Source: Pseudomonadota bacterium (GTDB lineage: Bacteria; Bdellovibrionota; FAC87; UBA2466). Taken from it: a stretch of DNA of 64,000 bases. The translations under genes and the position numbers were made by a program. A model generated the notes under the pieces. The model ran no database searches, was not told the DNA's origin, and worked only from the letters and a program-made list of their open reading frames with translations. This document shows, one piece after another, positions 2-16,432 of the stretch. The DNA lies in NCBI GenBank assembly GCA_043767805.1, contig JAYUGC010000091.1, forward strand, positions 1,467-65,466, in the 5' to 3' direction. The first letter of the stretch is position 1; each line of letters opens with the position of its first letter.

Positions 2-256
2 ATCAGTTGGACCGTGAAGGGAAAAACCCAAACCCATCTGTTGCCCGGCTATTACGACAACGAGTACACGGCGAAGGCGGCGGCCAAGGCATTACTCAAG
101 GCCCGAGGGGTCGAGGTAACCGACTTCAAAGTGTCCGATGTTGGCTCGGTTTTCCAAATCGTCGTGGAAGACATGAAGGAGCCCTGCCGCGTGAGCCGAG
201 AAGGAATTCCCCAATCTCCTCGTATCGAAGGCACGATCAGGTCATTAACACACTAG
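2..256 (+). CDS. hypothetical protein, C-terminal fragment (frame open to left window edge)
   Basis: Frame is open from nt 2 to TAG at 254-256 (listed ORF starts at GTG 14). No recognisable motif. The tail overlaps the convergent gene end by 20 nt. Confidence 0.3.
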   Translation: MSWTVKGKTQTHLLPGYYDNEYTAKAAAKALLKARGVEVTDFKVSDVGSVFQIVVEDMKEPCRVSREGIPQSPRIEGTIRSLTH

Positions 257-1532
257 CGCCGAGCGCATCGGGTCCGAGAAGCGGCACGGGCAGGCTTTTC
301 GGCGCGACCTCTAGCACTCGCGGGCGAATGTTTTCGATGAAGTTCGCGATGGGCAGAGAATCCCCGTACATACCGGCGAACGCGTTCGCCCAGCTCGGAT
401 TCTCTTTGAGCGCTCCCATGAAGCGCAAATCGTCTTCGGTCGCGGCGGCCATCTTCGCTTGCCGGCCCACCCACTGATAATAGTCGTTCAAGTCGGCTTC
501 CCGCCGGCGGCCGTAGCTAGCTCTGGTAATGCTTTCCGCCTCTCGGCCAAGCATCGCGGTGAGCGTTTCCGCGGCAAGCTCCGCGTCCCGAAAGGCGTGG
601 GTCATGCCGATGGCCGTGCACTGATCTTTCGTGCAAGCCGCATCGCCGACGAGCATCCAGCCGGGCCCCGCAGGCTTTCGCTTGAACGCTTTCTGATCGA
701 CGACGCCGTAAAGCTTTTCTTCCTGCTTGGCCGTGCGCAGCGCTTCCCCGTAGCCGGGGTTCACGAAAGCCGCCGCCCGCAGGTAATTCTCCTGAATGTT
801 TTTCTTAAAAAGCGGCGCCCATTCTTTCGGGCCAAACACGAGCGTCATGTTCGCGTTGTAGTTGGTCGGCACTATGACGAGCGCCAGTCTCCCGCGCTTT
901 TCCATCTTCGCCGCCGGCACTTTGAATCCGCTGAAGTAAGTCCAATAGGCGAACGTGCACTCGGCATCAATCGCCGAGACTTCCGCCTGCACCCATTTGG
1001 CTACCGAGGAATTTCGCCCATCCGCGCCAACTACGTAGCGAGCCCGCTCTTCGACCGTAGTCCCGTCGGCAAGCTTCGCGCGAATGCCGACCACTCGGTC
1101 GTTCTCCCAGATCAGACCTTCCACCGGAAAGTTCGGCCGGAACTCGACACCGCACTCGACGGCAGCATCGACTAAAATCTTATCGAGCACGAGACGGCGG
1201 ACGGAAGCATACGTATTTATCGCACCATTGCCATCCCCATGGGCGCTGAGCAACCGATCGCGCACCGCTTCGACCGGCGTCTCGCACGAAAACTCGATGC
1301 CGTCTCTCGCGAAATCGACTCGCGTATCGGACGGCGTCTCCGCGAGCACCCGATCTAAAATTCCCCAACGGTTCAAGTAGGACATGCCCCGAGGCCAAAG
1401 GAAATGCGTCGAGAGAGTATCTGACGGAAAACTAGTGCGATCGACGACGAGGACTTTCGCGCCACGTTTGGCGAGATTGAGCGCGGTGGCCGATCCCGCG
1501 CAGCGTGCCCCGACTAGGATGACGTCGTACAC
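237..1532 (-). CDS. FAD-dependent oxidoreductase/monooxygenase (geranylgeranyl-reductase/aromatic-hydroxylase-like fold)
   Basis: 431 aa with N-terminal dinucleotide-binding motif VILVGARCAGSATALNLAKRG. GTG start directly abuts the stop of the upstream gene (1533). No WxWxIP halogenase motif seen. Confidence 0.75.
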   Translation of the reverse strand: MYDVILVGARCAGSATALNLAKRGAKVLVVDRTSFPSDTLSTHFLWPRGMSYLNRWGILDRVLAETPSDTRVDFARDGIEFSCETPVEAVRDRLLSAHGDGNGAINTYASVRRLVLDKILVDAAVECGVEFRPNFPVEGLIWENDRVVGIRAKLADGTTVEERARYVVGADGRNSSVAKWVQAEVSAIDAECTFAYWTYFSGFKVPAAKMEKRGRLALVIVPTNYNANMTLVFGPKEWAPLFKKNIQENYLRAAAFVNPGYGEALRTAKQEEKLYGVVDQKAFKRKPAGPGWMLVGDAACTKDQCTAIGMTHAFRDAELAAETLTAMLGREAESITRASYGRRREADLNDYYQWVGRQAKMAAATEDDLRFMGALKENPSWANAFAGMYGDSLPIANFIENIRPRVLEVAPKSLPVPLLGPDALGASVLMT

Positions 1533-4307
1533 TTAATCCACCTTGTCCGCGGTTTGGGGCACGGGAAGCTGTTTTCTATCGAGTTTGCCATTCGGGGTCA
1601 GAGGAAATTCCTTGAGGAACACGAAGTAGTCGGGAATCTGATATACGGCGAGCTTCTTCTCAAGCCGCAGCTTGAGTGCGCCACGATCTTGCGCGGGCCC
1701 CACGAAGTAGGCGACGAGGCAGGCCTCGGTGGGATGGGAGACGACCACGCAGTCTCCAGGCGCGCCCGAATCCCGCAGCACTCCCTCGACTTCAGCGGGC
1801 TCGATACGGTAGCCACGCACTTTGATTTGATGATCGAGACGGCCCACGATTTCGATATCGCCGTTTAGGTGATATCGGGCGCGGTCCCCGGTCTTGTAGA
1901 GCTTACGGCCTTCCAAAGTGATGAATCTCTGGGCCGTAAGCTGAGGCTGGCCGCGGTACCCGCGAGCGAGTCCCGCGCCGCCGATGTGAAGCTCTGCGCT
2001 CTCGCCGATAGGGACCGGCTTCAAGGACTCATCGAGGATTTGAATTTCGGTATTGTCGATGGGCCGGCCAACGGTGACTGCTTCCGTGGACTTATCCATT
2101 TCACCGGCCGTCGACCAAATCGTCGTCTCGGTGGGGCCGTAAAGATTCCAAAGCCGCACGCCGCGGTCCAAAAGATCTTTGCGTAAGCCGGGAGGCATGG
2201 CCTCTCCGCCACATAGCGCTTTGAATCCGGGCTTACCTTTCCAACCGCCGTCTAAAATCGAGCGCCAGGTAACGGGCGTGGTCTGGAGAATCGTCGCGCC
2301 GCTCTCTTCCACCGCTTTGGCCAAACGAACACCGTCAAAGACCACGGGCCGAGGCACGAGGATGAGCTTCGCGCCCATCATCCAGGTCAGGTACAAATCG
2401 AGGCCCGCGATGTCGAAGGAAAGCCCCGTCGGCGACAAAAGCACTTCTTTCTCGGTGAAGTCGAAGAGCCGCTGCATGCTGGATAGAAAATTGATGACCG
2501 GCTTGTGACTGACTTCCACGCCCTTCGGACGTCCCGTCGAGCCCGAGGTGTATAGCAGATACGCGAGGTTCTCAGGCCGCACGCCTGAATCGACCGAACT
2601 CGTCGGCAAAGCGCTCCAAGGCGCATCGGCTCTCGGAAACGGAATCGACTCTCCCGAAAATAGGTCCAAAGGCTCGGTCACGCTCTCGTGTACGAGGAGC
2701 ATCTTCGCTTTCGAATCGGTCACCATGTGCTCGAGCCGCTCGCGCGGGTACTGCGGATCGATGGGAACGTAGGCTGCGCCGGCTTTCAGTACGCCCAGCA
2801 CCGCGACCATGAGCTCCAAAGATCGCGGGATGTGTAGCCCGACTACATCCTCCGGCCCAACGCCGCGAGCTTTCAAATAATGGGCGAGCTGATTCGCCCG
2901 CGCTTCGAGCTCGGCGTAGGTGAGCTTCACGCCGTCTAAGTCGACGGCGACCGCATTGGGCACTCGATCGGCCTGTCTCTCGAATAACTGATGGAGGCAG
3001 ACCGTCTCGTCAAAGAGTCTGTGCGTTTCGTTCCAGGCCTTCAAAGGCAGCGGCGCGACTTCCATCTCATAGAGGCCGTTCTTCTCGAGAGCGCGTAAAA
3101 CGAGAAGATCTCGCTCTACTTGGTCCTTCTCGGGATAGACCAGCATTACAAACCCAGGGCAGGTGAAGAAATCGACTGTACGGCGCAGAGGGTAACCGGG
3201 CTTTGCCCGCATCCGCATTTCGTTGAAAGACGGTAAGGCTCGAATCACGGCTTCGCCAGGCACGCTCTTCACGATGCCTTCTTGCTCGGAAATTAAAGAC
3301 ACCGAGAGCGAGTACTGCTTCAGCACATAGGGCTTCGCGGCCTTACGATGGAAGGCTTCCGGGTCGACGTAGGCGTCGACGGTAAGATCGAGCTGGCCGT
3401 ACCCCACGCAAGCTTCATTGAGCTGAGGCGTGGTGATGCCGTTTAACCGCGTTCCCACTTCCACCAAGGCCGGCCCCCGGGGCGTCAGCATGATTTCCGC
3501 GTGTGAGGGCCCTTCGGTAATCTGAAGAGCGTCGAGGGCTTTGACGGCGTAATCGCGAAGCACGGTGCCTTCTTCGCTCGTCGCCTCGACGAGGCCGTCG
3601 CGGTCGTAAACGAAGTTGCGGCCGTTCACGCGAACTTTGTAATACTTCCAGATGGCCGTGCAGTGCGCTTTACCCGCGAGGCTCACCAAGTCCAAGGCGA
3701 ACTCGGGACCTTCCAAAAACTCTTGCGCGAGGACTTCTTCATTCAAAAGCCCAATCTGGTTTACTTTGCCGAGGATGCGATCGAAGGCGTCTCGAATCTC
3801 CGCCTCCCCGGTGCAAATGGCGACGCTGTCGGTGCCTGCGCTCTTTAAAGGCTTCAAGACCACTTTAGAAAAGCCGTGCTTAGCGGTCCACGCGAGAATG
3901 GTCTCGACGTCCGTCGACTTAATCTGCTCGGCGACGAGAAGACCCTTCGCCCGTACCGCCTCGATCATCTTGTACTTGTCCCGACGAGCGGCGCTGAGCT
4001 CAATGCCGTTCCCCGGAGTGCCTAGGCCATCGCTCAAGGCATCGGCAAGCTCGACGCCGGTTTCGGTACCCGCGACGACGCACACGGGATTAAAGAGCTT
4101 AAGGTTCGCAAGCAATTTCGGGAGATCCCCGTCGAAAGCAAAGTGCGCTTCGTAGTCCGCGGGGCGATAGGTAATATTGAGGAGCGCCCAAATCTCGGGC
4201 GTGCTTTGTACGTGAATCGAAGTGTAGCCCCGGCCCTTGAACTCGCCCGGAAGGAAATTTCCAGCGGAGTAGCCGTCGACAATGACCGCGTATTTTTTCT
4301 TGCTCAC
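1533..4307 (-). CDS. ATP-grasp (L-amino-acid-ligase-like) :: adenylation (AMP-binding) didomain protein without carrier domain
   Basis: 924 aa. Residues ~1-420 are ATP-grasp-like. The C-terminal half carries NRPS-type A-domain cores LAYLLYTSGSTGRPKGV (A3), YGPTETT (A5), YKTGDRARY (A7), GRLDHQIKVRGYRIEPAEVE (A8) and PLTPNGKLDRK (A10). The ORF ends 12 aa after A10. GTGA start/stop overlap with the MATE gene. Confidence 0.85.
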   Translation of the reverse strand: MSKKKYAVIVDGYSAGNFLPGEFKGRGYTSIHVQSTPEIWALLNITYRPADYEAHFAFDGDLPKLLANLKLFNPVCVVAGTETGVELADALSDGLGTPGNGIELSAARRDKYKMIEAVRAKGLLVAEQIKSTDVETILAWTAKHGFSKVVLKPLKSAGTDSVAICTGEAEIRDAFDRILGKVNQIGLLNEEVLAQEFLEGPEFALDLVSLAGKAHCTAIWKYYKVRVNGRNFVYDRDGLVEATSEEGTVLRDYAVKALDALQITEGPSHAEIMLTPRGPALVEVGTRLNGITTPQLNEACVGYGQLDLTVDAYVDPEAFHRKAAKPYVLKQYSLSVSLISEQEGIVKSVPGEAVIRALPSFNEMRMRAKPGYPLRRTVDFFTCPGFVMLVYPEKDQVERDLLVLRALEKNGLYEMEVAPLPLKAWNETHRLFDETVCLHQLFERQADRVPNAVAVDLDGVKLTYAELEARANQLAHYLKARGVGPEDVVGLHIPRSLELMVAVLGVLKAGAAYVPIDPQYPRERLEHMVTDSKAKMLLVHESVTEPLDLFSGESIPFPRADAPWSALPTSSVDSGVRPENLAYLLYTSGSTGRPKGVEVSHKPVINFLSSMQRLFDFTEKEVLLSPTGLSFDIAGLDLYLTWMMGAKLILVPRPVVFDGVRLAKAVEESGATILQTTPVTWRSILDGGWKGKPGFKALCGGEAMPPGLRKDLLDRGVRLWNLYGPTETTIWSTAGEMDKSTEAVTVGRPIDNTEIQILDESLKPVPIGESAELHIGGAGLARGYRGQPQLTAQRFITLEGRKLYKTGDRARYHLNGDIEIVGRLDHQIKVRGYRIEPAEVEGVLRDSGAPGDCVVVSHPTEACLVAYFVGPAQDRGALKLRLEKKLAVYQIPDYFVFLKEFPLTPNGKLDRKQLPVPQTADKVD

Positions 4308-5713
4308 GCTAAAGCCTCATTCACTTTCGTCCCTTGTACCCAGTTCCAGAGCACATAGGCGGCCACCGCGAAAATTCCGGCGGTAAGCCCTCCCCAGAAG
4401 CCCAGTACGCCGAGCCCGAGGGAGAAACAAAGGTAGTACCCGATCGGTAGCCCCAGAATCCAGTACCCCAGAAAATTTCCCACCATGGCGGCGCGGGTAT
4501 TGCCCAGGCCGCGCAAAGCCCCGCACCCGACGCTTTGAATGCCGTCCGCCACTTGAAAGACCGCGGCCAGCATCAAGAGCCGTCGCCCGAGCTCGATGAC
4601 GCCCGCGTCTTGGCTGAAAAGACCGACGATGGGCGCCCCTAGCGTGAACATAATCACCGCGAAGCAAGCCATGACGCTCGCGCCAAGCCCAATCGACGTC
4701 CAACCGGAGAGCCGCGCCTGAACGGGATTTCCTTCTCCTAACGCTTGGCCCACCAGCACCGCGGTGGAGGCGGCGATGCCGTAGGGAACCATGTAAGTGA
4801 GACCCGCGAGATTTAAGACGATGGTGTGGGCCGCAAGTGAAATCGCGCCCAAAGGGACGATGAGCGTCGTCGCGAGCGAAAAGACGCCTGACTCAAAGAG
4901 GAGTTGCCCGCCGGCGGGAAGGCCCACTTGGAGAAGCCGCTTCATTCCCCTGGTATCAAAGGCGAGCGAGGCTTTGCTGAGCCCCAGCTCGAGACGCTTA
5001 TCTCTATGAAGCGCATAGACCAGGATGACTGCCGCCATGAGCGTGCGGCTAATCGTCGTCGCCACGCCCGCCCCGGCCACCCCGAACGCTTTCGCGCCCA
5101 GATTCCCGAAGATGAGCACCCAGTTGAGATAGGCGTTCAAAGCGACGGCGACGATGGTGATCACCGTTCCCGCATGCACGTTGCTCATGGCCTGCAGGTA
5201 CTGACGAAACGAGATGAAAACGAGAAAGGGGAGAAGACTCCAGCTCAACGTGCTCAAGAAGGCTCGCGCCGGCACGGCGATCGTGGGATCGAAGCCGAGA
5301 GCGGGAAGATTGCCCGCGACGATTTGAAGCAGGAGCACGAGCGGCAATCCCAGCAGAAAAGAGAGATAAACCGCCTGCACCAGCCAGTAGTGGCACTCCT
5401 TCACGTCTTTGCGGCCGTAGGCATGGGATACGAGGTAATCGAGCCCAAAAAGCGTACCGGCGCTAAACAGCGTGAAAACGTAAAAGAGAGCGGAGCCCAG
5501 GCCCGCGCCGCCGATGGCCTCGGGGCCGAGCTTTCCCAGCATGTACGTATCGATGAGGATCATCACCATCTGCCCGACCTGGCCGAGAGCGAGCGGGGTG
5601 GCCATGGCGATAGTCTTCGGCAGCTGACCTTTTACCGCGCGAGACCATTCTGAGTACGTCACAGCAGAACGTCTTAGCAGAGAGTTTGGTGCCGTGCGAA
5701 AAAACAGTTCCAA
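4304..5713 (-). CDS. MATE family efflux transporter
   Basis: 469-aa polytopic hydrophobic protein with MATE/NorM-like N-terminus (PKTIAMATPLALGQVGQMVMILIDTYMLGKLG). Start uncertain: TTG 5713, GTG 5662 or ATG 5605. Confidence 0.85.
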   Translation of the reverse strand: MELFFRTAPNSLLRRSAVTYSEWSRAVKGQLPKTIAMATPLALGQVGQMVMILIDTYMLGKLGPEAIGGAGLGSALFYVFTLFSAGTLFGLDYLVSHAYGRKDVKECHYWLVQAVYLSFLLGLPLVLLLQIVAGNLPALGFDPTIAVPARAFLSTLSWSLLPFLVFISFRQYLQAMSNVHAGTVITIVAVALNAYLNWVLIFGNLGAKAFGVAGAGVATTISRTLMAAVILVYALHRDKRLELGLSKASLAFDTRGMKRLLQVGLPAGGQLLFESGVFSLATTLIVPLGAISLAAHTIVLNLAGLTYMVPYGIAASTAVLVGQALGEGNPVQARLSGWTSIGLGASVMACFAVIMFTLGAPIVGLFSQDAGVIELGRRLLMLAAVFQVADGIQSVGCGALRGLGNTRAAMVGNFLGYWILGLPIGYYLCFSLGLGVLGFWGGLTAGIFAVAAYVLWNWVQGTKVNEALA

Positions 5714-5769
5714 AGGCTAAACGACTCGGCTTATATGCTGGGCTCGCTCCCAACCCTCTAGGTGGTGCC

Positions 5770-6549
5770 ATGAACCCGGGCCTTTCCAAAAAAACTAAGT
5801 TGATTCTCGGGTCGGTGCTGGTCACCTATCTCATTCTGATGGCGGTGAAGGCTTGGGTACCCGAGACCGCTCCGGTCATCGGAATTCTCATCTGGCTCCA
5901 AGAGATCGGCCTGAACTTGGGCGCTCTCTATTTAGTCTCCCTTCACCTGCGCAAGAAGGATCCCGCCGATACCGCTTTTGATAGATGCGCTTATCAATGT
6001 CTCGCGGCTTCCCTGGTCTTTACACTGACGGCCTCTACCACCTACCAAATCCTCTCTCGCGGGTTTGGCTGGACGCTTGAAAAAGCGATGGGCACGCCGG
6101 TCGAACTAGCCATCAACATTCCCTACATGTCTTTCTTCGCGTTCGGCTTGGTCGCTCTTTGGCGCGGGCACAACGGCTACGCCCCCAAAGCGAACAAAAC
6201 CGCGCTGCTTTCTCTCGTACTCTTCGTCATGACCGTTCTGGCGTTTCGCCACGGACTGGCCGCGACCGAGAACCCGCTTCAGAACCGCACCATCCATTGG
6301 ATGTGCTTCGCTTTGGAGTGCGCGATCCTTACGGTTGGCGTAATCAACGCCTTAGCTCCGCCGCTAAGCCTTCGGTTCGTGAGCCTAGCTTACGTCTGCA
6401 TCGCGGCTTCGGGTTATCTCTTTCAGATTTATGAAATCTACCCGACTATCCCCTATCTCGATTTCCCCATCGATGCGTCCTGGACGCTGGGACAACTGCT
6501 TCTCGTCTCGGGCTTGAGCCTCACTGGCTCGGAGAAACTCAGGGCATGA
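5770..6549 (+). CDS. polytopic membrane protein, unknown function
   Basis: ATG at 5770 inside the listed ORF avoids overlap with the divergent MATE gene. Several hydrophobic helices. ATGA overlap with the next gene. Confidence 0.5.
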   Translation: MNPGLSKKTKLILGSVLVTYLILMAVKAWVPETAPVIGILIWLQEIGLNLGALYLVSLHLRKKDPADTAFDRCAYQCLAASLVFTLTASTTYQILSRGFGWTLEKAMGTPVELAINIPYMSFFAFGLVALWRGHNGYAPKANKTALLSLVLFVMTVLAFRHGLAATENPLQNRTIHWMCFALECAILTVGVINALAPPLSLRFVSLAYVCIAASGYLFQIYEIYPTIPYLDFPIDASWTLGQLLLVSGLSLTGSEKLRA

Positions 6550-7916
6550 CCGGAAAGCCCGCCACCGAGACGAAACACCTCGCCATCGTCGGCGCCGGCC
6601 CGAAGGCCATCGCCATCGCGGCGAAGGCCTCCGTCTTGAAGCGGCTGGGCTTCAAAGTTCCGGACATCACCATTTTCGAGCGCGGCCACATCGCCCACCA
6701 TTGGCGAGCGGAGTCCGGTTTTACGAACGGCAAGCTCACTCTCGGTACCGGTCCCGACAAAGACGTCGGCTTTCCGTATTATTCTTTCTGCTGGGGCGAC
6801 GCCGCGAACCGCAAGATCAACTACCTCATTCAGGAGTTCTCCTGGCAGAACTACCTGATTGCAACTCACGAGTTCGGCGATTGGGTCGATCGCGGTAAGC
6901 CCGCCCCCACCCACCACCATTGGGCAAGATATCTCGAATGGGTCTTTAAGCGCGTCGAAAAGAACGTGACTCTCGTGCAAGCGAACCTAAGCGAGGCCGA
7001 GGTTCAGGGCGACCACTGGAAACTGACCTCCGTCGATAAGTCGGGACAGAAAACGGAGACCCTCGCCGATGGCCTCGTCTTCACCGGCCCGGGCGAGCCT
7101 CGCTTTTCGGGAGGCTCCCTTCCGGTCCACGAGCGCATTCTCCGCATGGAGACCTTTTGGCTGAGATACAAAGAATATACGTCGCTCGAAAAAGCGTCCG
7201 TCGCCCTGGTCGGCACGGGGGAGACGGCGGCGACGATCGCGGTGGCGATGGCGCAATCAAGCCCCAACGTGCGCGTCGACATCATCTCGCCCAGCGCAAT
7301 GGCCTACTCGCGCGGCGAAAGCTACGTCGAGAACCATATTTACACCGACCCGTTCCAGGGTAACTGGCTGCACCTCACGCGGGAGGACCGGCGCAATTTC
7401 ATCAACCGCACCGATCGCGGCGTTTTCTCCATCTCCACCAAGCAGGAGATGGACAGGCTTAAGAACATCGAAATCGTGCCGGGCCTTTTCACGGGCATCA
7501 CGGTGGACTCGCTCGATCAGCTGGTCGTGAACATCGCCTACAACTCAGGCTCCGAAACGCGGCTCTACGACATGCTCATTCTCTCGGTGGGCTTCGATCA
7601 CCTGGAGTTCGTCAAACGCGTGCTCACGAAAAAGGCACAAGACCATCTGGTCTCGAAGGCGGCCTTACCCGATCTCTCGACCCCCAACGTGGAAGACAAG
7701 ATTGATCGCTACCTAGCGGTCGACGGCATGCGGCCCTATTTGCATCTGCCCATGCTAGCGGGGATGAGCCAAGGGCCGGGCTTCGCCAACTTGAGCTGCC
7801 TCGGGAGATTGTCGGATCATATTTTGTCTCGTTACGTTCCTCCGCAATCGGCGCTCCTCGCCGAGCATCCCATTCTTAGGGGCGTGAACGATTTTTCGAG
7901 TCATGACGGGTTCTGA
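6546..7916 (+). CDS. FAD/NADPH-dependent amine N-hydroxylase-like protein (IucD/PvdA/SidA class; Spb38-like candidate)
   Basis: 456 aa. FAD motif AIVGAGPKAIAIAAKA (cf. IucD GVGTGPFNLSIAAL), second dinucleotide motif VALVGTGETAATIAVAMA, and a distal DMLILSVGF (cf. ATGY region). The spacing matches lysine/ornithine N-monooxygenases. Confidence 0.55.
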   Translation: MTGKPATETKHLAIVGAGPKAIAIAAKASVLKRLGFKVPDITIFERGHIAHHWRAESGFTNGKLTLGTGPDKDVGFPYYSFCWGDAANRKINYLIQEFSWQNYLIATHEFGDWVDRGKPAPTHHHWARYLEWVFKRVEKNVTLVQANLSEAEVQGDHWKLTSVDKSGQKTETLADGLVFTGPGEPRFSGGSLPVHERILRMETFWLRYKEYTSLEKASVALVGTGETAATIAVAMAQSSPNVRVDIISPSAMAYSRGESYVENHIYTDPFQGNWLHLTREDRRNFINRTDRGVFSISTKQEMDRLKNIEIVPGLFTGITVDSLDQLVVNIAYNSGSETRLYDMLILSVGFDHLEFVKRVLTKKAQDHLVSKAALPDLSTPNVEDKIDRYLAVDGMRPYLHLPMLAGMSQGPGFANLSCLGRLSDHILSRYVPPQSALLAEHPILRGVNDFSSHDGF

Positions 7917-9012
7917 CATCATCGTCCTCGGCGCGGGTGGCCTGGGAAGCGCCATTCTTCAACACCTAGCCAAGGCGGGAGCGAACGTTCTCGGCATCGA
8001 TCGCCATCATCCCCCTCACCGGCACGGCAGTAGCCACGGCAACACTCGGCTCATTCGCAAGGCTTACTTCGAGGATACGCGCTACATCCCGCTTCTCGAA
8101 CGCAGCTACGAATTGTGGCGAAACTTGGAGCAGGCGTCGGGAAAGACCCTTTACCGAGAGACCGGCCTCTTAATTCTGCGAGACACCGAAACGGGTTTTA
8201 CGGCAAAAGCGCTGGAGAACGCAAAAGCCAATAACGTCGAGATGGACCGGCTCGACGCTTCCGAGCTAAAAGCGCGCTTTCCTCAGTTCGAAGTGAGCCC
8301 GGACGTGCACGGGCTCTTTGAAAGACAGGCGGGCTACTTGAACGTCGAGGCTTCCGTCCAAGCCCATCTCGAGCAAGCCAAACGCTCGGGCGCCCACTTT
8401 GCCTTCAATGAGACGGTCCAATCGTGGAGCGTGCGCCACGGCAAAGTCACCGTCCGCACCGACAAGAAGAAGTACACCGCGAAACAGCTCGTTCTCGCTC
8501 CCGGCGCGTGGACCGCGGGCCTTCTTAAAGACTTCGGCATGTCTTTCACCGTGAGACGGGGCGTGCAGTTCTGGTTCGCGGGCCTTCCCAAGCACCAGAC
8601 TATTCCCTGCTTTGGCTTTGCGGTCGGAGACACTTTCATTTACGGCTTTCCGCAAATTCCGGGAGTAGGGCTAAAAGCCGCGGACTACGCGCCTTCCGAC
8701 GTCTTGAAAGTCCCCGAGGATCAAACCTCCGGCTTTCGGCCCGATGAGCTTTTGCCGGTGACCTCCCGGCTACAGAGATTTCTACCCGACGTAAGCCCCG
8801 TGCCGATTGCTTCGAGCCCTTGCCTCTATTCCATCACCCGGGACGAGAACTTCTTGATCGACCGCCACCCCGAGCACTCGGAAGTCTTTCTCGCGGCGGG
8901 AGATTCCGGCCATGCGTTTAAATTCGCGCCGGTCATCGGAGAGATGGTGACGGGGATGGCCCTGGGCTCGTCGCCCAAGTTTGATTTGAGCTTCTTGGCC
9001 TACCGAAGCTGA
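7903..9012 (+). CDS. monomeric sarcosine oxidase / N-methyltryptophan oxidase family FAD amine oxidase
   Basis: 369 aa. IIVLGAGGLGSAILQHLAKAG then HGSSHGNTRLIRKAYFED, typical of the MSOX/SolA family. 14-nt overlap with the upstream gene. Confidence 0.75.
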   Translation: MTGSDIIVLGAGGLGSAILQHLAKAGANVLGIDRHHPPHRHGSSHGNTRLIRKAYFEDTRYIPLLERSYELWRNLEQASGKTLYRETGLLILRDTETGFTAKALENAKANNVEMDRLDASELKARFPQFEVSPDVHGLFERQAGYLNVEASVQAHLEQAKRSGAHFAFNETVQSWSVRHGKVTVRTDKKKYTAKQLVLAPGAWTAGLLKDFGMSFTVRRGVQFWFAGLPKHQTIPCFGFAVGDTFIYGFPQIPGVGLKAADYAPSDVLKVPEDQTSGFRPDELLPVTSRLQRFLPDVSPVPIASSPCLYSITRDENFLIDRHPEHSEVFLAAGDSGHAFKFAPVIGEMVTGMALGSSPKFDLSFLAYRS

Positions 9013-10424
9013 TTGAGAACCGCGACAAGCGTGTCCACGTGCTCTTTTTGCGTCGCGAAGTTAGAGATGCCCGCCCGCAATACGTCCTGCCCCGTGTGAT
9101 AGAGCTTGGTCGGCGTAATCCAGGTCTTGCCCGTTTCCCCGACACGTTTCGCGAACGTTTTGACGTCGAGAGAGGGCTGCTTCGGGTCGACGAAGCAAAC
9201 GACCGGAAGCGCCGTCTCGTTCACGACTTTCCATCCGTTTACTTCGAGCTTTTCTCGCAAGTAGCCGCCCATCTCAATCTGATGGCGGAGGACTTTTTGA
9301 TAGCCCTCTTCGCCGTGCACCGCGAGCGTCAGAAAGAGCTTCAGGCCCGTAAAGCGACGCGACCACTGCAGGGATTGCTTGTAGGGCTCCGCGTACTCGG
9401 CAGCGTGCGTGCCAGGAGGCATGTAGTGGCTCGCCTCGACACTAAAGGTCTCTTCCAAAATGTTCGCGTGAGGCGTGAAGAAGATCCCCGCGCCCATTGG
9501 CACCGACAGCCACTTATGCGCATCGAGAGTCAGAGAATCGGTTTTCTCGACGCCCGCGAAAAGCGCGCGGTGCTCAGGTAAAAGAATGGCCGCCCCACCC
9601 CAAGCCGCATCGGCATGGAGCCAAAGGCCGTGGCGTTTCGCCACTTCCGCTATCGGGTCCAAAGCATCAAAGACGCCCGCGCTGGTGCTTCCGAGAGTCG
9701 CGACCACGAATAGCGGCAACTTCCCCGCCGCCTTATCAATCGATATCTGTTTATCGAGAGCCGCCACATCGAGCTGAAGCCGCGCATCGACCGGAAGCTC
9801 CACCACGCTCTTCGTGCCTAGCCCGCAGACGCGGGCCGCACGCAAAAACGAATGATGGGTTTCCTTCGAAGTGTAGAGGACCGGCCTATATGTCCCGACC
9901 CCGTCCGTGCGGAAATCGGGCAGCTTTGCCGCCAACGCACAAAGAACCGCCGTATAGTTCGCTTCGGTACCACCCGTGGTGAAGCAGCCTCTTACGGAAC
10001 CGGACGGATACCCGAACTTCATCCCGAAATACCGCACGAGATGGTTCTCCATCTCGATGCAAACCTTGGCGCTCGCCGTGGAGGCAAGCTGGGGGTTGAA
10101 GCTCGCGACCAAGAGGTCGGCCGCGACTCCCATGGTGGAAGGGCTCGGGTTGAACACCCCGAAGTAGGCGGGGTGACTCGTATGAAGAAGCCCCTCTTTA
10201 AGGAGCGTTCCGACCTGGGCCACGACCGAGGCGGACCTTTGAGGAGCCTGGAAATCTTGGGTCTTTAGATAAGCGGAGAGGGCGGCGCTTTGGTCGGAAG
10301 GCGCGACGGGAAGACGGGCGACCTCACCGAGGTGGCTTTCCATGAGAGCAGAGAGCTGACCCCAAAGCGCTTGCCGCTCTTTTTGGGGGAGCAAGAGACC
10401 GAATCCTTCCCGAAACGGGTCCAT
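9000..10424 (-). CDS. group II pyridoxal-phosphate-dependent amino-acid decarboxylase
   Basis: 474 aa. PLP-lysine motif SLTLDAHKWLSVPMGAG and TTGGTEANY. Length and layout match aromatic-amino-acid/DABA/glutamate decarboxylases. Confidence 0.85.
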   Translation of the reverse strand: MDPFREGFGLLLPQKERQALWGQLSALMESHLGEVARLPVAPSDQSAALSAYLKTQDFQAPQRSASVVAQVGTLLKEGLLHTSHPAYFGVFNPSPSTMGVAADLLVASFNPQLASTASAKVCIEMENHLVRYFGMKFGYPSGSVRGCFTTGGTEANYTAVLCALAAKLPDFRTDGVGTYRPVLYTSKETHHSFLRAARVCGLGTKSVVELPVDARLQLDVAALDKQISIDKAAGKLPLFVVATLGSTSAGVFDALDPIAEVAKRHGLWLHADAAWGGAAILLPEHRALFAGVEKTDSLTLDAHKWLSVPMGAGIFFTPHANILEETFSVEASHYMPPGTHAAEYAEPYKQSLQWSRRFTGLKLFLTLAVHGEEGYQKVLRHQIEMGGYLREKLEVNGWKVVNETALPVVCFVDPKQPSLDVKTFAKRVGETGKTWITPTKLYHTGQDVLRAGISNFATQKEHVDTLVAVLNQLR

Positions 10425-10504
10425 TTCCTTACTCCCTGGGTTATTGCGTTAGAGGGCGGCTCCGAGTTAAGTTGCGGTGCAACAAAGCTAGGGCGGTTCT
10501 AAAC

Positions 10505-12436
10505 ATGATCATTCAGAAGATCAACCCTTCTCAGCTCGAGAAGGCCTACAACATTCGCTGTCAGGGACTCTACCCTTTGAAACGCGAGCATTTCTTTGCT
10601 CCGTTCGGCTCCGCCTATTGCGAGGTCGAGCCCCAAGGTTTTTCCGCGCGCCACAATCACCACGAGAACGAAACGTTCTACATTCTCCAAGGTTCGGGCA
10701 CGATGGAGATCAACGGCGAGAAGGAAAACGTCTCGGCCGGCGACGTCATCTTGATCCCCGCGCTCTCTCACCACCGGCTGGACAACACGTCGACCACCGA
10801 GCGTTTGAACTTCGTCTCCGTCTACTGGAGTGCGCCGCTCGTTCCCGAGATTCCGAAACACCTTCTCGTCATCCCGGCGCCACCCACGCCGAACGGCCCG
10901 CTTCATCTAGGTCATCTTTCAGGACCGTATTTCGCGGCCGATGTGTACACGCGCTACGCGACTTCTCGCGGCTCGAATGCGTTTTATGCGATGGGTACGG
11001 ACGACAACCAGTGTTACGTCGCGGCCAAGGGACGCTTGCTCGGTCTCACGGGAGAAGAAGTCGTCGATAAGTTCACGCCCCTGATCACGAGCGCCCTGGA
11101 AGACTTCGGCTGCAACGTGACGACGTTCTTACATCCCCTCGGCCAGGGCGATTACACGCGCTTCGTGCAAGAGACCTTCGTGACCCTCATGGAAAGAGGA
11201 GTCATCGAGCTTCGGACGGTACCGACGCCTTTCTGTGAAGCCACCCAGCAGTTTCTCTACGGCGCTCAAGTCACGGGCAAATGCCCCACTTGTAAGCAGC
11301 TGACCAGCGGCCAAAGTTGCGAAGCGTGCGGCGCCTACAACGACGCTTGGGACCTCATCGAGCCCAAGTCGAATGTGGGTAAGGGCCCGGTCGTGCTGAA
11401 AGACGCCGAGAAATACTATTTCCCGCTTTCGAAATACGCCGACAAACTGAGAACGATTCTCGCCCAAGTGTCCATGCATCCGAAGTTGCGCGCGTTCTAC
11501 GACGCGTACCTGGACCGTGGGCTTCCGGATGTCGCCGTCACGCAGTTTGGCGAATGGGGCGTGCCCTGCCCGCTCATGGACGGCCAAGTCCTCTACGAAT
11601 GGTTCGAGATGGCGGGAAGCTACTTCCACCTTTCCGATCAGGTTTGCGAAACGAAAGGCGAACCCGCTTTTTGGCAAGACAAGCTCGCGGGCGTCGTCGA
11701 GTGCTTCGGCTTCGACAATAGTTTCTTCTACGGCTTGCTCGTTCCGGCTTTGATGAGCGAGATCGACCCGTCGTCGCATCCGCCGAAGGCGTTTCTTTTT
11801 AATTTCTTCTATAACCTAGACGGCAAGAAGTTCTCGACGAGCCGGGGCCACGCGGTCTGGGCCCACGAGATTCTCGCAACAGTGCCTCCGGATGCGATTC
11901 GCTTTTACCTCGCCAAAACCCGCCCCGAGGACATCGAGACCAACTTCAATTTGAATGAGATGACCGCCTTCGTCGAGCGGGAGCTGGTCGGCCGGTGGGA
12001 ACCGTTCCTGGCGGCAGTCACGACCGGCACCGTTCCGGCGTTCACGGATTCTCTCGCCTGGGACCACGAGCGGTTTCTGTCGCGCGTGAACCGCATCGTC
12101 GAAGAAATTCATCAGCACTACAACGTCGACCGCTTCTCTCTGAACGCGGCCGCCGAGGGCCTGATCGAGCTCTTCAACACCGTCTCGCTCTTTCATGCTC
12201 GGTTTGATGCCCTCGATCCGCGGGCCCGCAACCTGACGGCGCAGGCCTTGCGCGCTTGGGCGACGCTTCTGACTCCCCTCATGCCGGAGTTCGGCGCGAA
12301 AGTCGCCAAAGCGATGAGCGCCTCGGGCAAAGCCACTTTGATTACTGAGCTTCGTACCGACTCTTCTATCGATGAGCTCCCCAAGCGCGACTTGAGCGAC
12401 GCCTTGGCCAAATTGAAAGCTTTCACTCATGGATAA
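10505..12436 (+). CDS. cupin :: methionyl-tRNA-synthetase-like didomain protein (candidate hydrazine synthetase, Spb40/Tri28/PyrN type)
   Basis: N-terminal cupin motifs RHNHHENETFYILQG and GDVILIPALSHHRLDN. Class I aaRS core follows: HIGH-type PNGPLHLGH, MetRS zinc knuckle CPTCK-x8-CEACG and KMSKS-type KFSTSRG. ATG at 10505 (the track opens at TTG 10472). Confidence 0.8.
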   Translation: MIIQKINPSQLEKAYNIRCQGLYPLKREHFFAPFGSAYCEVEPQGFSARHNHHENETFYILQGSGTMEINGEKENVSAGDVILIPALSHHRLDNTSTTERLNFVSVYWSAPLVPEIPKHLLVIPAPPTPNGPLHLGHLSGPYFAADVYTRYATSRGSNAFYAMGTDDNQCYVAAKGRLLGLTGEEVVDKFTPLITSALEDFGCNVTTFLHPLGQGDYTRFVQETFVTLMERGVIELRTVPTPFCEATQQFLYGAQVTGKCPTCKQLTSGQSCEACGAYNDAWDLIEPKSNVGKGPVVLKDAEKYYFPLSKYADKLRTILAQVSMHPKLRAFYDAYLDRGLPDVAVTQFGEWGVPCPLMDGQVLYEWFEMAGSYFHLSDQVCETKGEPAFWQDKLAGVVECFGFDNSFFYGLLVPALMSEIDPSSHPPKAFLFNFFYNLDGKKFSTSRGHAVWAHEILATVPPDAIRFYLAKTRPEDIETNFNLNEMTAFVERELVGRWEPFLAAVTTGTVPAFTDSLAWDHERFLSRVNRIVEEIHQHYNVDRFSLNAAAEGLIELFNTVSLFHARFDALDPRARNLTAQALRAWATLLTPLMPEFGAKVAKAMSASGKATLITELRTDSSIDELPKRDLSDALAKLKAFTHG

Positions 12437-13499
12437 GTTCGACGCCATCGTCATTGGAGGCGGCATCGTCGGCGCCTCCGCCCTTCACCAGCTGACCCGG
12501 CAGGGAAAGACCAGAAACCTCCTTCTCGAAAAGAAAGCGGGCTTTGGCCGCGGCGCCACCGGTTCCTGGGGCTCACTCGTTCGCATGTTTCACTTGAGCC
12601 TTGCGACCACGACGTCGGCCGCAAAAAGCGTTCCCTTTTATCTCGATTTCAAAAAGCACACCGGCGAGGACTTCAACTGGACCCGCACCGGATCGCTCTA
12701 TTTCCTGAAAGAACCTGAGTTGCCCCAGTTCGAGGCGCATTTCGAACAGCTTAGGAGATCAGGTCTCGAGTTCGAACTGATCCGAGCAAGAGAAGGCAAA
12801 CAACGCTTCCAAGATTTTTCCTGGTACGAGAATGATGTCGCGGTCTATGAGCCAAACGCCGGTGTGGCTTGCCCCTGGAGCACGACCGAATCGTTTCTGC
12901 ATGCGGCCGAGAAGCTCGGCGCCACCTCCAAGCTCAATACGGAAGTCACCGAAGTTCTGTCTCAGGGCGACAAAATCAGGGGCGTCCGGACGTCTAACGG
13001 CGCCGAGTACGAGTGCGACCTGCTGGTAGTCGCCTCCGGCGTTTGGACCAATGCCTTACTGGAAAAGATCGGCACGACTTCCAGCGCCTTTTCGAAGTCG
13101 CTTCAGCTTAATCGGTTTTGCCGGCACCACGGCGACGTCTCTCATCCCTTCTTCATCGATAAGGCGTCGCAGACTTTCGGCCATCCCTCGCAAAGCGGCT
13201 CCTTCATCGGCGGCTACTTGGGAGGCGAAGCCAAGAACGGGGATCATTCCGTCGAGCACGTGAGCCTTCTCGATGCAAATGAAGCGAAGCAAAAGATTTC
13301 CCAGCGCATCCCTTGGGTCAAGAATGCTACGCTAGAGGGTGGCATCCGCGCTTTGGAAGCCTACACGAACACCAACGTGGGCATCGTCGAACGGTCCGCC
13401 AGTTACGACAACCTCATCGTCACTACCGGATGGAGCTGCTCGGGCTTCACTTTGGCGCCGGTCGCGGGCCAGCGGGTGGCCGAGGCCGCTCTGCACTAA
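12429..13499 (+). CDS. DAO-family FAD-dependent oxidoreductase (Spb39-like candidate)
   Basis: 356 aa with N-terminal FDAIVIGGGIVGASALHQL. Length is that of glycine/D-amino-acid-oxidase-like proteins. 8-nt overlap with the cupin::MetRS-like gene. Confidence 0.75.
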   Translation: MDKFDAIVIGGGIVGASALHQLTRQGKTRNLLLEKKAGFGRGATGSWGSLVRMFHLSLATTTSAAKSVPFYLDFKKHTGEDFNWTRTGSLYFLKEPELPQFEAHFEQLRRSGLEFELIRAREGKQRFQDFSWYENDVAVYEPNAGVACPWSTTESFLHAAEKLGATSKLNTEVTEVLSQGDKIRGVRTSNGAEYECDLLVVASGVWTNALLEKIGTTSSAFSKSLQLNRFCRHHGDVSHPFFIDKASQTFGHPSQSGSFIGGYLGGEAKNGDHSVEHVSLLDANEAKQKISQRIPWVKNATLEGGIRALEAYTNTNVGIVERSASYDNLIVTTGWSCSGFTLAPVAGQRVAEAALH

Positions 13500-13954
13500 T
13501 GGATATCTATCTCGACGCCGATGCGAGCCCCAATAAGGAAGACACGTTTCGTGTCGCCAAGCGCTACAACTTGAAGGTCTTCGTCGTTTCGAATACGCCC
13601 AAGCACATCCCTCGGGAAGACTGGATCGTTCAGATACTGGTCGAAAAGGATTTCGACGCCGCCGACAACTGGATTGCGGATCACGTTCAGAAGGACGACA
13701 TCGTCATCACGAACGACTTGCTACTCGCCGGCCGTTGCGTGAAGAAGGAAGCCCGGGTCATCGACCCGCGCGGCAGGATCTTAGACGAGGACAACATCGG
13801 TGACGCCCTCTCGACGCGTGAGCTGATGTCCGAGCTCAGACAACGGGGGGAGCTCAACCTTGGCCCCAAGAAAATGGGCAAGAACCACCGTTCCGCCTAC
13901 CTCTCTGGCCTCGATGAGCTCATCAATCAGGTGCTCAGACAAAAACGGGCGTGA
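13499..13954 (+). CDS. yaiI: YaiI/YqxD family protein (UPF0178)
   Basis: 151 aa from the internal ATG. IYLDADASPN, DDIVITNDLLLAG and DPRGRIL align with E. coli YaiI IWVDADACPN, GDLVITADIPLAA and NPRGERY (recalled from memory). TAATG overlap with the DAO gene. Confidence 0.75.
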   Translation: MDIYLDADASPNKEDTFRVAKRYNLKVFVVSNTPKHIPREDWIVQILVEKDFDAADNWIADHVQKDDIVITNDLLLAGRCVKKEARVIDPRGRILDEDNIGDALSTRELMSELRQRGELNLGPKKMGKNHRSAYLSGLDELINQVLRQKRA

Positions 13955-14086: not shown

Positions 14087-15937
14087 TTAGCGGCCCGTCG
14101 GCGACACCAATTTAGGCAACGTCATCTGATTTGAAAACGCAGCGACCGGCGCATAGTGCCTCGCCGTTCCATTTTTGAAATAGACAGCCTTCGGCCATCC
14201 ATCTGAGGCAAACGCATTGTGTAGCTCATTGTACCCCGGTTTTTTCCCGACCTCATGCATGTCGATAACGACGAATCTCATCTGATCGGCGTACTGGCGC
14301 ATGTAATTTTCCAGATTCTTCTTATACGTTGGCTCAGCGCAACGACTGCAACCCACGCTGTTGGTCACCACTAAAAATACCGGCTTTGGCGAAGCCGCCA
14401 CCAGCGCCTGGAACTGCGCCAGGTTCTCCGGATCCGGAAGAGCGGCCGGCGTCGCAGGCGGCTGCTGCGCCGGTTGTTGGGCCGGCGGCTGCTGCGCGGT
14501 TTCTTGTTCCGCCGGCTTCGTCTTCGCGGGCTTCACGAAATAGACCCATCCTCTGCCAGGCGCTTTGGCCTGACAAAATTCGCCGCCAATGCAACTGGCT
14601 TGCGTCGTATCGAGGTCGGCTATTCGTACATTGGCCGGATCGAGCTTCACTCCTTTAGAAGCTGAAGCCAAAGTTACTTTATTCAGCAGCGTCGGACCGT
14701 GAAAGAGTTGCGTCCCCTCGGGATACTCCGCGGAATGCACTTTCATATAACTTGCCACGGTTTCATCGCCCTCTTTAGGGGCGGGAAACTCGGATTTCTT
14801 GCTCGAGCCCGAGATATCGAGGTCCAAGCCGGCTGTCCTCGGCTGAGCGACTTCACCGGCACCCTCAGGCTCCGTGGTCGTAGAAGGCTCAGGAGAATCG
14901 CATTTCACGTTTTCCAGCATCTTCTTCGCGTCGCGATCTAAGTTCGCGGTAGCGTCCTTGCCATTGCCATCTAATCCGAGTCCCGACGAAACCAGAGCGG
15001 CGTTAGATCCATTGGTATAGCCAGTGAGGACTCCCGCCAGGTACCACTTCCCGTCTTTCGGATCTTGAATGAACGACGGTGAGCCTGAGTCACCCGGATT
15101 AGGCCTCTGTCCGGAAAGAAATTCGAAAGAGCCTGACTGAGGACTGTTCGTTGCCGCGGTAATCGGGAAACCATCCTTGCTTCCGATGACCAGCTCCTTT
15201 TGGCGTGTATGCGTTACTGGCGTCCCGTTCAACGTCCTCGTCATCGGCAAATACGTCGTAACACTGGTGGGCGCCTGATTCTGAATTAAAGGAAATCGCT
15301 TCAAACGGGTCGTGCACGGAATCGCCATGACCGTCATGTCGCTTTTCTTATTGCCGTCCGGATAGAGCATGACCGCATCGACCAAAGGAGAACCCGGAAG
15401 AGACGTATGAATCTTCGTGCGAAAACCTTTCGCATTGGCTCCCTTACAAAGCGGGGGCCTTTCGCCATCCAAGACTTTTTGGCCGAGCTCCGCGAGCGCG
15501 TCCTTGATGCAATGCTTGGCGGTCATTGCCACGCACCAACCTCCGGGACCGGGAGCGGGCCCAAGTCCCTTGAGATCCACGCCTTCCACCACGGCGCCAG
15601 TGCCCGAGCACCGGCCCAATTCAGTGAACGAATCGCCTTCAAGCGCGTAACGAAAAAAAGGCGTGTTTTCCGAAACCGTAAGCTGGCGAGCAGTAACCGC
15701 CGCATTCTCGCTTCTCGGCGCGGCGAACGAAGAACTGGCCCTCTCCTTGAGGCTGCGACGTCGAGCCTTGGCTCGCCAAAGGTGCTCCGGTGTTTCCGGA
15801 ATCTGTGTGCGAACCACCTTGGATACTTCCGTTAAGCCCCAACGCAGGCGCTTGTTGCACGCCTCCGAAATTACCCGGAGCGGCTTGCGTGGCGGGCGCG
15901 GCCCCGCCTTTACGCATGCGAAAAATGTTATCGGCAC
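14087..15937 (-). CDS. trypsin-like serine protease with C-terminal thioredoxin-fold domain (probably the downstream part of a frame-disrupted gene)
   Basis: His motif AMTAKHC and Ser motif GDSGSPSF. PQ-rich linker QQPPAQQPAQQPPATP, then Trx-like VFLVVTNSVGCSRCAEP...WPKAVYFKNG. The first ~70 codons look like out-of-frame sequence, with no signal peptide. Confidence 0.65.
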   Translation of the reverse strand: MPITFFACVKAGPRPPRKPLRVISEACNKRLRWGLTEVSKVVRTQIPETPEHLWRAKARRRSLKERASSSFAAPRSENAAVTARQLTVSENTPFFRYALEGDSFTELGRCSGTGAVVEGVDLKGLGPAPGPGGWCVAMTAKHCIKDALAELGQKVLDGERPPLCKGANAKGFRTKIHTSLPGSPLVDAVMLYPDGNKKSDMTVMAIPCTTRLKRFPLIQNQAPTSVTTYLPMTRTLNGTPVTHTRQKELVIGSKDGFPITAATNSPQSGSFEFLSGQRPNPGDSGSPSFIQDPKDGKWYLAGVLTGYTNGSNAALVSSGLGLDGNGKDATANLDRDAKKMLENVKCDSPEPSTTTEPEGAGEVAQPRTAGLDLDISGSSKKSEFPAPKEGDETVASYMKVHSAEYPEGTQLFHGPTLLNKVTLASASKGVKLDPANVRIADLDTTQASCIGGEFCQAKAPGRGWVYFVKPAKTKPAEQETAQQPPAQQPAQQPPATPAALPDPENLAQFQALVAASPKPVFLVVTNSVGCSRCAEPTYKKNLENYMRQYADQMRFVVIDMHEVGKKPGYNELHNAFASDGWPKAVYFKNGTARHYAPVAAFSNQMTLPKLVSPTGR

Positions 15938-16379: not shown

Positions 16380-16416
16380 CACACACCCCCAAAAAACCCC
16401 AGTACCGTGTAGACAA

Positions 16417-16432
16417 TGCAAAAGAAGCACCA
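16417..16432 (-). promoter_or_regulatory. sigma-54-type promoter motif (TGGTGC-N5-TTGCA)
   Basis: Minus strand reads TGGTGCTTCTTTTGCA with correct GG/GC spacing and a perfect -12 TTGCA, about 38 nt upstream of ATG 16379. Confidence 0.4.

Follow-up and report, generated by a model that had tools for sequence, protein, structure and literature searches.

We provide evidence that a 643-aa protein encoded in the genome of an uncultured bacterium of the Bdellovibrionota, annotated in its relatives as a methionyl-tRNA synthetase, belongs to the hydrazine synthetases (HS) rather than to the tRNA synthetases. Its gene lies in the stretch of contig JAYUGC010000091.1 that we analyzed (hereafter the window, 64,000 nucleotides in full) and joins an N-terminal zinc cupin to a C-terminal domain resembling methionyl-tRNA synthetase (MetRS). 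We assign it to the hydrazine synthetases because it is closest in kinship to PyrN of Streptomyces candidus, because the cupin residues of that enzyme and its lysine K458 (K442 here) are retained, and because it scores well below the cut-offs of the curated metG models. For the fuller reading, in which this didomain enzyme acts as PyrN and Spb40 do, on a predicted small neutral amino acid and with an NbtG-like N-hydroxylase and a DAO-family oxidase as partners, we estimate a probability of roughly 85%. The gene and the oxidase gene coupled to it are laid out as follows:

10505..12436, + strand: HS gene (643 aa), encoding an N-terminal Zn-cupin, a linker, and a C-terminal MetRS-like O-aminoacyl-hydroxylamine synthetase (Pfam, homology, and predicted fold).
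10616..10825, + strand: Cupin_2 domain, aa 38-107 (Pfam).
10877..12001, + strand: catalytic core of a class I aminoacyl-tRNA synthetase, aa 125-499 (Pfam tRNA-synt_1g, E 2e-68).
12429..13499, + strand: DAO2, a DAO-family oxidoreductase dependent on flavin adenine dinucleotide (FAD) and a candidate conjugate-cleaving enzyme of the Spb39/Tri27/Apy10/FuzF type (Pfam DAO, E 2e-45).

Discovery of the HS family, which includes Spb40, Tri28, PyrN, AzsN, and ThzN, dates from 2018, with Spb40, and its structural dissection from 2025. Among the enzymes known to form N-N bonds, hydrazine synthetases make up, to our knowledge, the largest family, and there is demand for them as biocatalysts and as markers of N-N natural products, among them diazo, triazene, pyrazole, and hydrazide compounds. 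Biochemical dissection came in 2021 (PMC8664883); the family has been the target of repeated mining, and its size is estimated at more than 1,200 members (PMC13149037). In the mechanism described for these enzymes, the MetRS-like domain activates the amino acid as an aminoacyl-adenylate and acylates the oxygen of an N-hydroxy-amine, and the Zn-cupin then forms the N-N bond by rearranging the ester (bioRxiv 10.1101/2025.08.22.671884).

The open reading frame (ORF) around the gene extends over positions 10472-12436 of the forward strand; an ATG at 10505 yields the 643-aa protein and fits the N-terminal sequence MxIQ that is common to its relatives. A preliminary description, made from the nucleotide sequence, had recognized a cupin::MetRS-like didomain with a helical C-terminal domain and had quoted a series of motifs. 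Pfam matches to Cupin_2 and tRNA-synt_1g bear out the two domains, and every quoted motif can be located in the protein: PNGPLHLGH at residues 129-137 (HLGH at 134-137), GTDDNQ at 164-169, FFYGLLVPA at 407-415, KFSTS at 442-446, the inner Cys4 zinc knuckle as CPTCK at 260-264 with CEACG at 272-276 (C260, C263, C272, and C275), and the cupin motifs HNHH at 50-53 and SHH at 88-90. The helical C-terminal domain likewise appears, as a bundle at residues 483-603, in a structure that AlphaFold2 predicted with 40 homologues as input (pLDDT 93.1, pTM 0.89). The cupin::MetRS-like architecture is conserved far beyond chance: with a threshold of E <= 1e-10, a search returned 1455 homologues, and among the 120 that rank highest the majority combine a cupin with tRNA-synt_1g. 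The outer Cys4 zinc knuckle is one place where this protein departs from PyrN, which has two such knuckles: C244 is kept, but the other three positions are T247, S289, and G292, so that the inner knuckle alone survives, as it does in the nearest relatives. Across 40 aligned relatives (34-59% identity), the outer knuckle is lost in 17 and keeps all four cysteines in 23.

The protein is closer to PyrN than to any MetRS in both sequence and fold. Its best sequence matches in the PDB, at E about 4e-70, are 9L8V and 9VQ4, the C-terminal domain (PyrN-C) of the pyrazomycin hydrazine synthetase PyrN (bioRxiv 10.1101/2025.08.22.671884), and the matches to MetRS are weaker (E 4e-52 for Pyrococcus abyssi, E 1e-35 for Escherichia coli). 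The preliminary description had placed the protein in the Spb40/PyrN-type family and had suggested structure prediction as a check; the top Foldseek match of the model is PyrN 9L8V (TM-score 0.90, root-mean-square deviation [rmsd] 2.4 Å, 30% identity), compared with TM-scores of 0.70-0.77 and rmsd of 5-7 Å for the MetRSs. The preliminary description had called the metal-ligand motifs of the cupin intact; the four metal ligands of the PyrN cupin are indeed all present, at identical residue numbers (H50, H52, E56, and H90), and they are invariant in 40/40 aligned relatives. In PyrN, these four residues have been probed by mutagenesis, and E56A abolishes activity (PMC8664883). The family-defining features of hydrazine synthetases that can be sought in the sequence of the protein itself are all found, and the metG cut-offs and the methionine-pocket residues place it outside MetRS.

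The competing reading, a genuine MetRS, perhaps auxiliary or antibiotic resistant, in which the N-terminal cupin is incidental, draws on a real resemblance. The protein has the tRNA-synt_1g match listed above, it shares with the MetRSs of E. coli (MetG) and P. abyssi the Rossmann core, the zinc knuckle of the connective peptide, the HxGH motif, a tryptophan (Trp253 in MetRS, W366 here), the KMSKS lysine, and the helical C-terminal bundle, and database annotations of its relatives read "methionyl-tRNA synthetase." It scores at best 245 bits, however, on the NCBI curated metG models, whose equivalog cut-offs are 553 (NF008859) and 587 (NF001100), a shortfall of more than 300 bits, and 226 bits on TIGR00398 against a cut-off of 336. 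Residues of the methionine pocket have also been replaced, much as the preliminary description had maintained for the methionine-contacting Tyr and His: in a HMMER alignment, Tyr15 of E. coli MetRS (PYANG) stands opposite Thr128 (PTPNG), and His301 (YFHSLFWPA) stands opposite Tyr409 (FFYGLLVPA). That alignment ends at residue 497; the E. coli anticodon domain has no detectable match here, and Anticodon_1 reaches only 20.4 bits at residues 524-601, under the Pfam cut-off of 25.1. The HS protein has a cupin at its N-terminus, its gene shares a biosynthetic operon with those for an N-hydroxylase and oxidases and does not stand in a translation context, and the aminoacyl acceptor of PyrN is N6-OH-lysine, not tRNA (PMC8664883). 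Missed metG cut-offs, replaced methionine-pocket residues, the closer kinship to PyrN, and the biosynthetic operon together lead us to reject a true MetRS identity, which we regard as highly improbable. The 64-kb window holds no second MetRS-like gene (a tblastn search with the MetRS-like domain returned only the HS gene itself) and no tRNA gene detected by ARAGORN.

Which amino acid the hydrazine synthetase would activate can be approached through its pocket. Co-crystals of PyrN define eleven pocket positions (S138, F139, P140, T141, V179, Q182, A384, L387, R390, N421, and R425) alongside the motifs 147-HLGH-150 and 458-KFSTG-462 (bioRxiv 10.1101/2025.08.22.671884). A HMMER alignment to PyrN-C puts A125, P126, P127, T128, D166, Q169, W366, M369, S372, N405, and Y409 at these positions. 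K442 of KFSTS is the equivalent of PyrN K458. The backbone-binding positions 3, 4, 6, and 10 (P127, T128, Q169, and N405) are as in PyrN, and the seven remaining letters form the specificity code APDWMSY. We compared this code with the 11-position table in the supplement of bioRxiv 10.1101/2025.08.22.671884 and with the 8-residue codes quoted in PMC12376268; as a control on the mapping, our relatives P0110 and P0104 reproduce the codes of Afn8 and SerHS, respectively, the former exactly. The codes that matter most here are these:

PyrN: substrate Glu, code SFVALRR.
Tri28: substrate Gly, code TPDWMGH.
Afn8: substrate Ala, code PPDWMGY.
SerHS: substrate Ser, code PADWFGY.
P. rubra enzyme A0A0U3GF74: substrate Gly, code TPDWMAF.
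This HS: predicted substrate Ala, then Gly, code APDWMSY.

The nearest published code is that of Afn8, identical at 5/7 positions including the Tyr at position 11, and of the eight characterized enzymes with Tyr at that position, all but one accept Ala, the exception accepting Ser. Because of these two likenesses, we predict from the pocket sequence that the enzyme uses a small neutral amino acid, with alanine as the first candidate, glycine as the second, and serine as the third. The authors of the specificity-code table themselves hedge its predictive use (bioRxiv 10.1101/2025.08.22.671884). Across the aligned relatives, the pocket is near-fixed as APPTDQWM-x-NY, and position 9 alone varies (A, G, S, or R). 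The preliminary description had argued for an amino acid other than methionine, with which the pocket code, the kinship to PyrN, and the metG scores all agree; its further view that the sequence does not reveal which amino acid is activated has become partly outdated, since the published codes point to Ala or Gly.

The second gene of the pair, DAO2, is coupled to the HS gene by an 8-nt overlap, its ATG lying at 12429 and the HS stop codon TAA at 12434-12436 (ATGGATAA). A DAO gene likewise sits directly downstream of the HS gene in all eight other loci for which the downstream flank is available; because its start precedes the HS stop by 1-32 nt in each of them, we regard the tight coupling as conserved. 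Both the overlap with a DAO-family gene and the pairing reminiscent of Spb40 and Spb39 had been pointed out in the preliminary description; the overlap is confirmed, and the analogy is supported. The closest PDB relatives of DAO2 are sarcosine-oxidase-like. Among the oxidases that cleave HS conjugates, Spb39 and Tri27 yield aminoadipate semialdehyde together with an alpha-hydrazino acid, and Apy10 splits off pyruvate, with the hydrazine staying on the other partner (PMC11705231).

The remainder of the cluster lies upstream of the HS gene:

237..1532, - strand: FAD_binding_3 flavoprotein monooxygenase, probably a tailoring enzyme (family match).
1533..4307, - strand: DdaF-like ATP-grasp L-amino-acid ligase fused to an adenylation (A) domain of the nonribosomal peptide synthetase (NRPS) type, without a carrier domain.
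4304..5713, - strand: MATE efflux protein, probable product exporter (family match).
5686..6549, + strand: conserved 287-aa protein, directly upstream of the N-hydroxylase (no family match).
6546..7916, + strand: NbtG-like flavin N-monooxygenase (Pfam Lys_Orn_oxgnase; PDB 4D7E, NbtG, E 1.5e-82).
7903..9012, + strand: DAO1, of the monomeric sarcosine oxidase (MSOX)/N-methyl-Trp-oxidase (MTOX) type (NCBIfam NF008425, 375 bits against a cut-off of 257).
9000..10424, - strand: group II decarboxylase dependent on pyridoxal phosphate (PLP), divergent from the HS gene (Pfam Pyridoxal_deC, E 6e-67).

The N-hydroxylase gene, 2.6 kb upstream of the HS gene, has one strong solved relative, the L-lysine N6-monooxygenase NbtG (4D7E). 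The two oxidases of the cluster, DAO1 and DAO2, are only 21% identical. The PLP decarboxylase reached no equivalog cut-off in NCBIfam, where its best match was the 2,4-diaminobutyrate (DABA) decarboxylase RhbB at 153 bits against 900; its PDB relatives are CSAD, GADL1, DDC, and GAD, and RhbB and DesA score alike as well. The ATP-grasp::A-domain fusion is a single 924-aa ORF here and two overlapping genes in the related loci L003/L004 and L005. Because the related loci all lack a visible carrier (PP-binding) domain, the A domain may be a free-standing amide ligase. The 287-aa protein at 5686-6549 has no match in Pfam or NCBIfam; a homologue with 35-38% identity stands at the opposite end of the cluster in L003 (positions 12988-13821 of that locus). 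The TTG start of the 5686-6549 ORF overlaps the start of the MATE gene, and its true start is uncertain. In a scan for promoters and terminators around the operon, matches were no commoner than in shuffled sequence.

This gene set is held together across a wide range of related loci, with 38-64% identity over all of them. The closest relative of the HS protein is 59% identical to it, and the closest characterized relative is 30% identical; its nearest homologues come from MAGs labeled Deltaproteobacteria or Proteobacteria (MAG, metagenome-assembled genome). Orthologues of the cluster genes occur together at 45-64% amino acid identity in L001/L002 (a MAG labeled Proteobacteria, GCA_026390475.1), L003/L004, L005 (a groundwater MAG labeled Deltaproteobacteria), L010, L011, and L012, the last in degraded form. 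A Bdellovibrionales MAG (L013) and the planctomycete Candidatus Uabimicrobium (L014) carry the same set, with the addition of GNAT and SnoaL genes, and their HS proteins have ~39% identity; the window itself has neither a GNAT nor a SnoaL gene. Every related locus that keeps the cassette has an orthologue of the N-hydroxylase (the cassette of L012 is the degraded one), and the PLP decarboxylase stands beside the HS gene in 7/8 distinct related loci. DAO1 is present in L001, L003, L010, and L011, and absent from L005 and L012, and L013 and L014 carry a second DAO-family gene. The MATE gene is kept in L003, L005, L011, L013, and L014, and the FAD_binding_3 monooxygenase has orthologues in L003 and L005 (56-57% identity).

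The Acidobacteriota-labeled relatives, which have Arg at position 9 of the HS pocket, carry another cassette, found at 8001-12121 of L015 (a contig of JGI 3300085980): an N-hydroxylase, an HS, a pyruvoyl decarboxylase of the AdoMet_dc family, and a DAO. Because unrelated decarboxylase families adjoin the HS gene in the window and in L015, the comparison suggests that decarboxylation is integral to the chemistry of the wider clade.

The pathway that we propose is built on the didomain architecture, the catalytic and ligand residues, the kinship to PyrN, the N-hydroxylase, the coupled DAO, and the conservation of the cluster. The MetRS-like domain would adenylate a free amino acid with ATP, most likely L-alanine and otherwise glycine, and would then acylate an N-hydroxy-amine on its N-OH oxygen, in place of tRNA. 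That N-hydroxy-amine would be made by the upstream NbtG-like monooxygenase and would be N6-hydroxy-lysine by default, with a diamine as a possible variant. The Zn-cupin, through H50, H52, E56, and H90, would then rearrange the unstable O-aminoacyl-hydroxylamine ester to form the N-N bond, and DAO2 would oxidatively cleave one C-N bond of the conjugate to yield a hydrazino building block. Coupling of this block to other acids would probably fall to the ATP-grasp ligase and the adenylation domain, by comparison with FuzC, the ATP-grasp ligase of fuscazine biosynthesis, which converts a hydrazino acid supplied by an HS into a hydrazide (PMC13149037). Tailoring of the product would fall to the decarboxylase, DAO1, and the FAD monooxygenase, and its export to the MATE pump. 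The decarboxylase is perhaps a supplier of diamine or an enzyme of the late pathway; for DAO1, the candidate roles are cleavage of a second C-N bond and processing of the lysine-derived by-product. Both substrates, the regiochemistry of cleavage, the downstream steps, and the product are the parts of this scheme that we infer.

Several points weigh against this scheme. The assignment of HS function to the protein and its immediate clade draws on sequence, a structural model, and gene context. The code APDWMSY is identical to that of no characterized enzyme, differing from Afn8 at positions 1 and 9, and the substrate may be a non-proteinogenic or otherwise unexpected amino acid. Likeness to NbtG does not prove that lysine is the substrate of the N-hydroxylase: among the N-hydroxylases known to work with an HS are some that act on DABA, ornithine, putrescine, or 1,3-diaminopropane (PMC12376268, PMC11705231). 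DAO2 is a candidate relative of Spb39, Tri27, and Apy10 by family and gene position, and the PLP decarboxylase and the second oxidase exceed the canonical four-gene hydrazine cassette, whose scheme does not explain them.

Two variants of the scheme differ in the identity of one substrate. Were the enzyme glycine specific, as Spb40, Tri28, and AzsN are, it would form N6-(carboxymethylamino)lysine as its conjugate, from which DAO2 would release hydrazinoacetic acid (HAA). Four of the seven code letters (P, D, W, and M at positions 2, 5, 7, and 8) are those of Tri28, the 8-residue code APDQWMNY matches that of the glycine enzyme AzsN (TPDQWMNH) at 6/8 positions, and the HS-DAO pairing is that of Spb40 and Spb39 (PMC11705231). 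The glycine-only enzymes of the code table, however, carry His, Phe, or Arg at position 11, where this HS has the Tyr that accompanies acceptance of Ala or Ser, and position 1 is Ala, not Thr; we consider glycine specificity unlikely. The other variant concerns the partner, which would be an N-hydroxy-diamine (from cadaverine, putrescine, or 1,3-diaminopropane) produced by the clustered PLP decarboxylase and subsequent N-hydroxylation. The persistence of that decarboxylase beside the HS gene, its best NCBIfam match to RhbB, the AdoMet_dc decarboxylase at the same place in the Acidobacteriota relatives, and reports of hydrazine synthetases that use N-hydroxy-putrescine and N-hydroxy-1,3-diaminopropane (PMC11705231, PMC12376268) all speak for a diamine. 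Against it, the decarboxylase falls below every equivalog cut-off, is equally similar to CSAD, GADL1, DDC, and GAD, and could equally act late in the pathway, and the one strong solved relative of the N-hydroxylase is a lysine enzyme. A diamine partner strikes us as conceivable but rather doubtful.

Returning to the HS with a small neutral substrate, comparison with known systems places the locus among several partial likenesses. PyrN (PDB 9L8V, 9VQ4, 9VQJ, and 9VR2) has the same cupin::MetRS-like didomain, HLGH and KFSTx motifs, P/T/Q/N pocket positions, cupin ligand positions, and NbtG-type N-hydroxylase partner, but its glutamate pocket reads SFVALRR against APDWMSY, and it belongs to a C-nucleoside cluster of an actinomycete, whereas this HS belongs to a small ligase-based cluster of an uncultured bacterium. 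The Spb40/Spb39 pair (s56-p1) and the Tri28/Tri27 pair (triacsins), both of the HAA pathway, share with the window a didomain HS followed by a DAO-type FAD oxidase, which in those pairs cleaves the conjugate. Spb40 and Tri28 are glycine specific, however, with His at position 11 and Thr at position 1 in place of Tyr and Ala, and their clusters feed polyketide synthase (PKS) or acyl carrier protein (ACP) machinery, whereas the cluster in the window lacks carrier proteins and has a decarboxylase and a second oxidase. Afn8/Afn9 of albofungin biosynthesis use alanine, with the cupin and the MetRS-like part on separate proteins that are fused in this HS; the Afn genes lie in a type II PKS cluster and are proposed to give free hydrazine for a hydrazine transferase. 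The Fuz (fuscazine) cluster, like the window, combines a hydrazine cassette with ATP-grasp ligases and has no NRPS or PKS. It differs in its separate cupin and MetRS-like proteins, its Arg or hydroxy-Arg acceptor, its tRNA deacylase, and its dioxygenase, and it lacks the PLP decarboxylase and the second DAO that the window cluster has.

The clade to which this HS belongs, defined by the pocket APPTDQWM-x-NY, has a gene set that consists of an N-hydroxylase, the HS, two unrelated DAO-type oxidases, a PLP decarboxylase, an ATP-grasp ligase, and a MATE exporter, with GNAT, SnoaL-like, A-domain, and FAD monooxygenase genes as variable members. We suggest, very tentatively and at less than even odds, that the clade makes a small metabolite, as yet undescribed, that contains a hydrazine or hydrazide and whose synthesis goes beyond the chemistry of the four-gene cassette. 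One route to such a metabolite may run through a hydroxylamine partner derived from the decarboxylase. In another, both oxidases may cut both C-N bonds to give free hydrazine or an N-aminated amine, with capture by the ATP-grasp enzyme.

The cluster sits in the core chromosome among housekeeping genes, given the shikimate and tryptophan genes nearby and a G+C content that is uniform across the window. Positions 19679-40399 hold an extended series of genes for the synthesis of aromatic amino acids: those for prephenate dehydratase, 3-dehydroquinate (DHQ) synthase, chorismate synthase, shikimate dehydrogenase, 5-enolpyruvylshikimate-3-phosphate (EPSP) synthase, chorismate mutase/prephenate dehydrogenase, two 3-deoxy-D-arabino-heptulosonate-7-phosphate (DAHP) synthases, TrpA, TrpB, TrpD, and TrpE. 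A DUF188/YaiI gene at 13502-13954 (+ strand) begins 3 nt past the DAO2 stop; it stands beside the cassette in no related locus and is probably not part of the pathway. Two low-complexity ORFs without a convincing family match occupy 14087-16430 (- strand), one of 616 aa with PAQQP-type repeats and one of 263 aa, Gly/Cys-rich, with GGRPCGG-like units. Between 16577 and 19651 lie a poly-gamma-glutamate hydrolase-like gene (+ strand), a class I methyltransferase (- strand), and a 509-aa DAO::Rieske [2Fe-2S] fusion (- strand), and these genes have no counterpart beside the cassette in related loci.

The enzyme family, its mechanism, and its fold are already known, and this HS belongs within that family; the locus leaves the accepted view of the HS mechanism unchanged. 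What is new is an uncharacterized HS clade with a near-invariant pocket code, spread over several phyla and mostly in uncultured non-actinomycetes. The accessory set of a PLP decarboxylase, a second oxidase, and an ATP-grasp ligase is likewise new, in that we found no paper describing it or a cluster type that combines an HS with an ATP-grasp ligase and a decarboxylase. The cluster probably makes a new small hydrazine-derived metabolite, and its HS would extend the table of specificity codes by which members of this family are compared.

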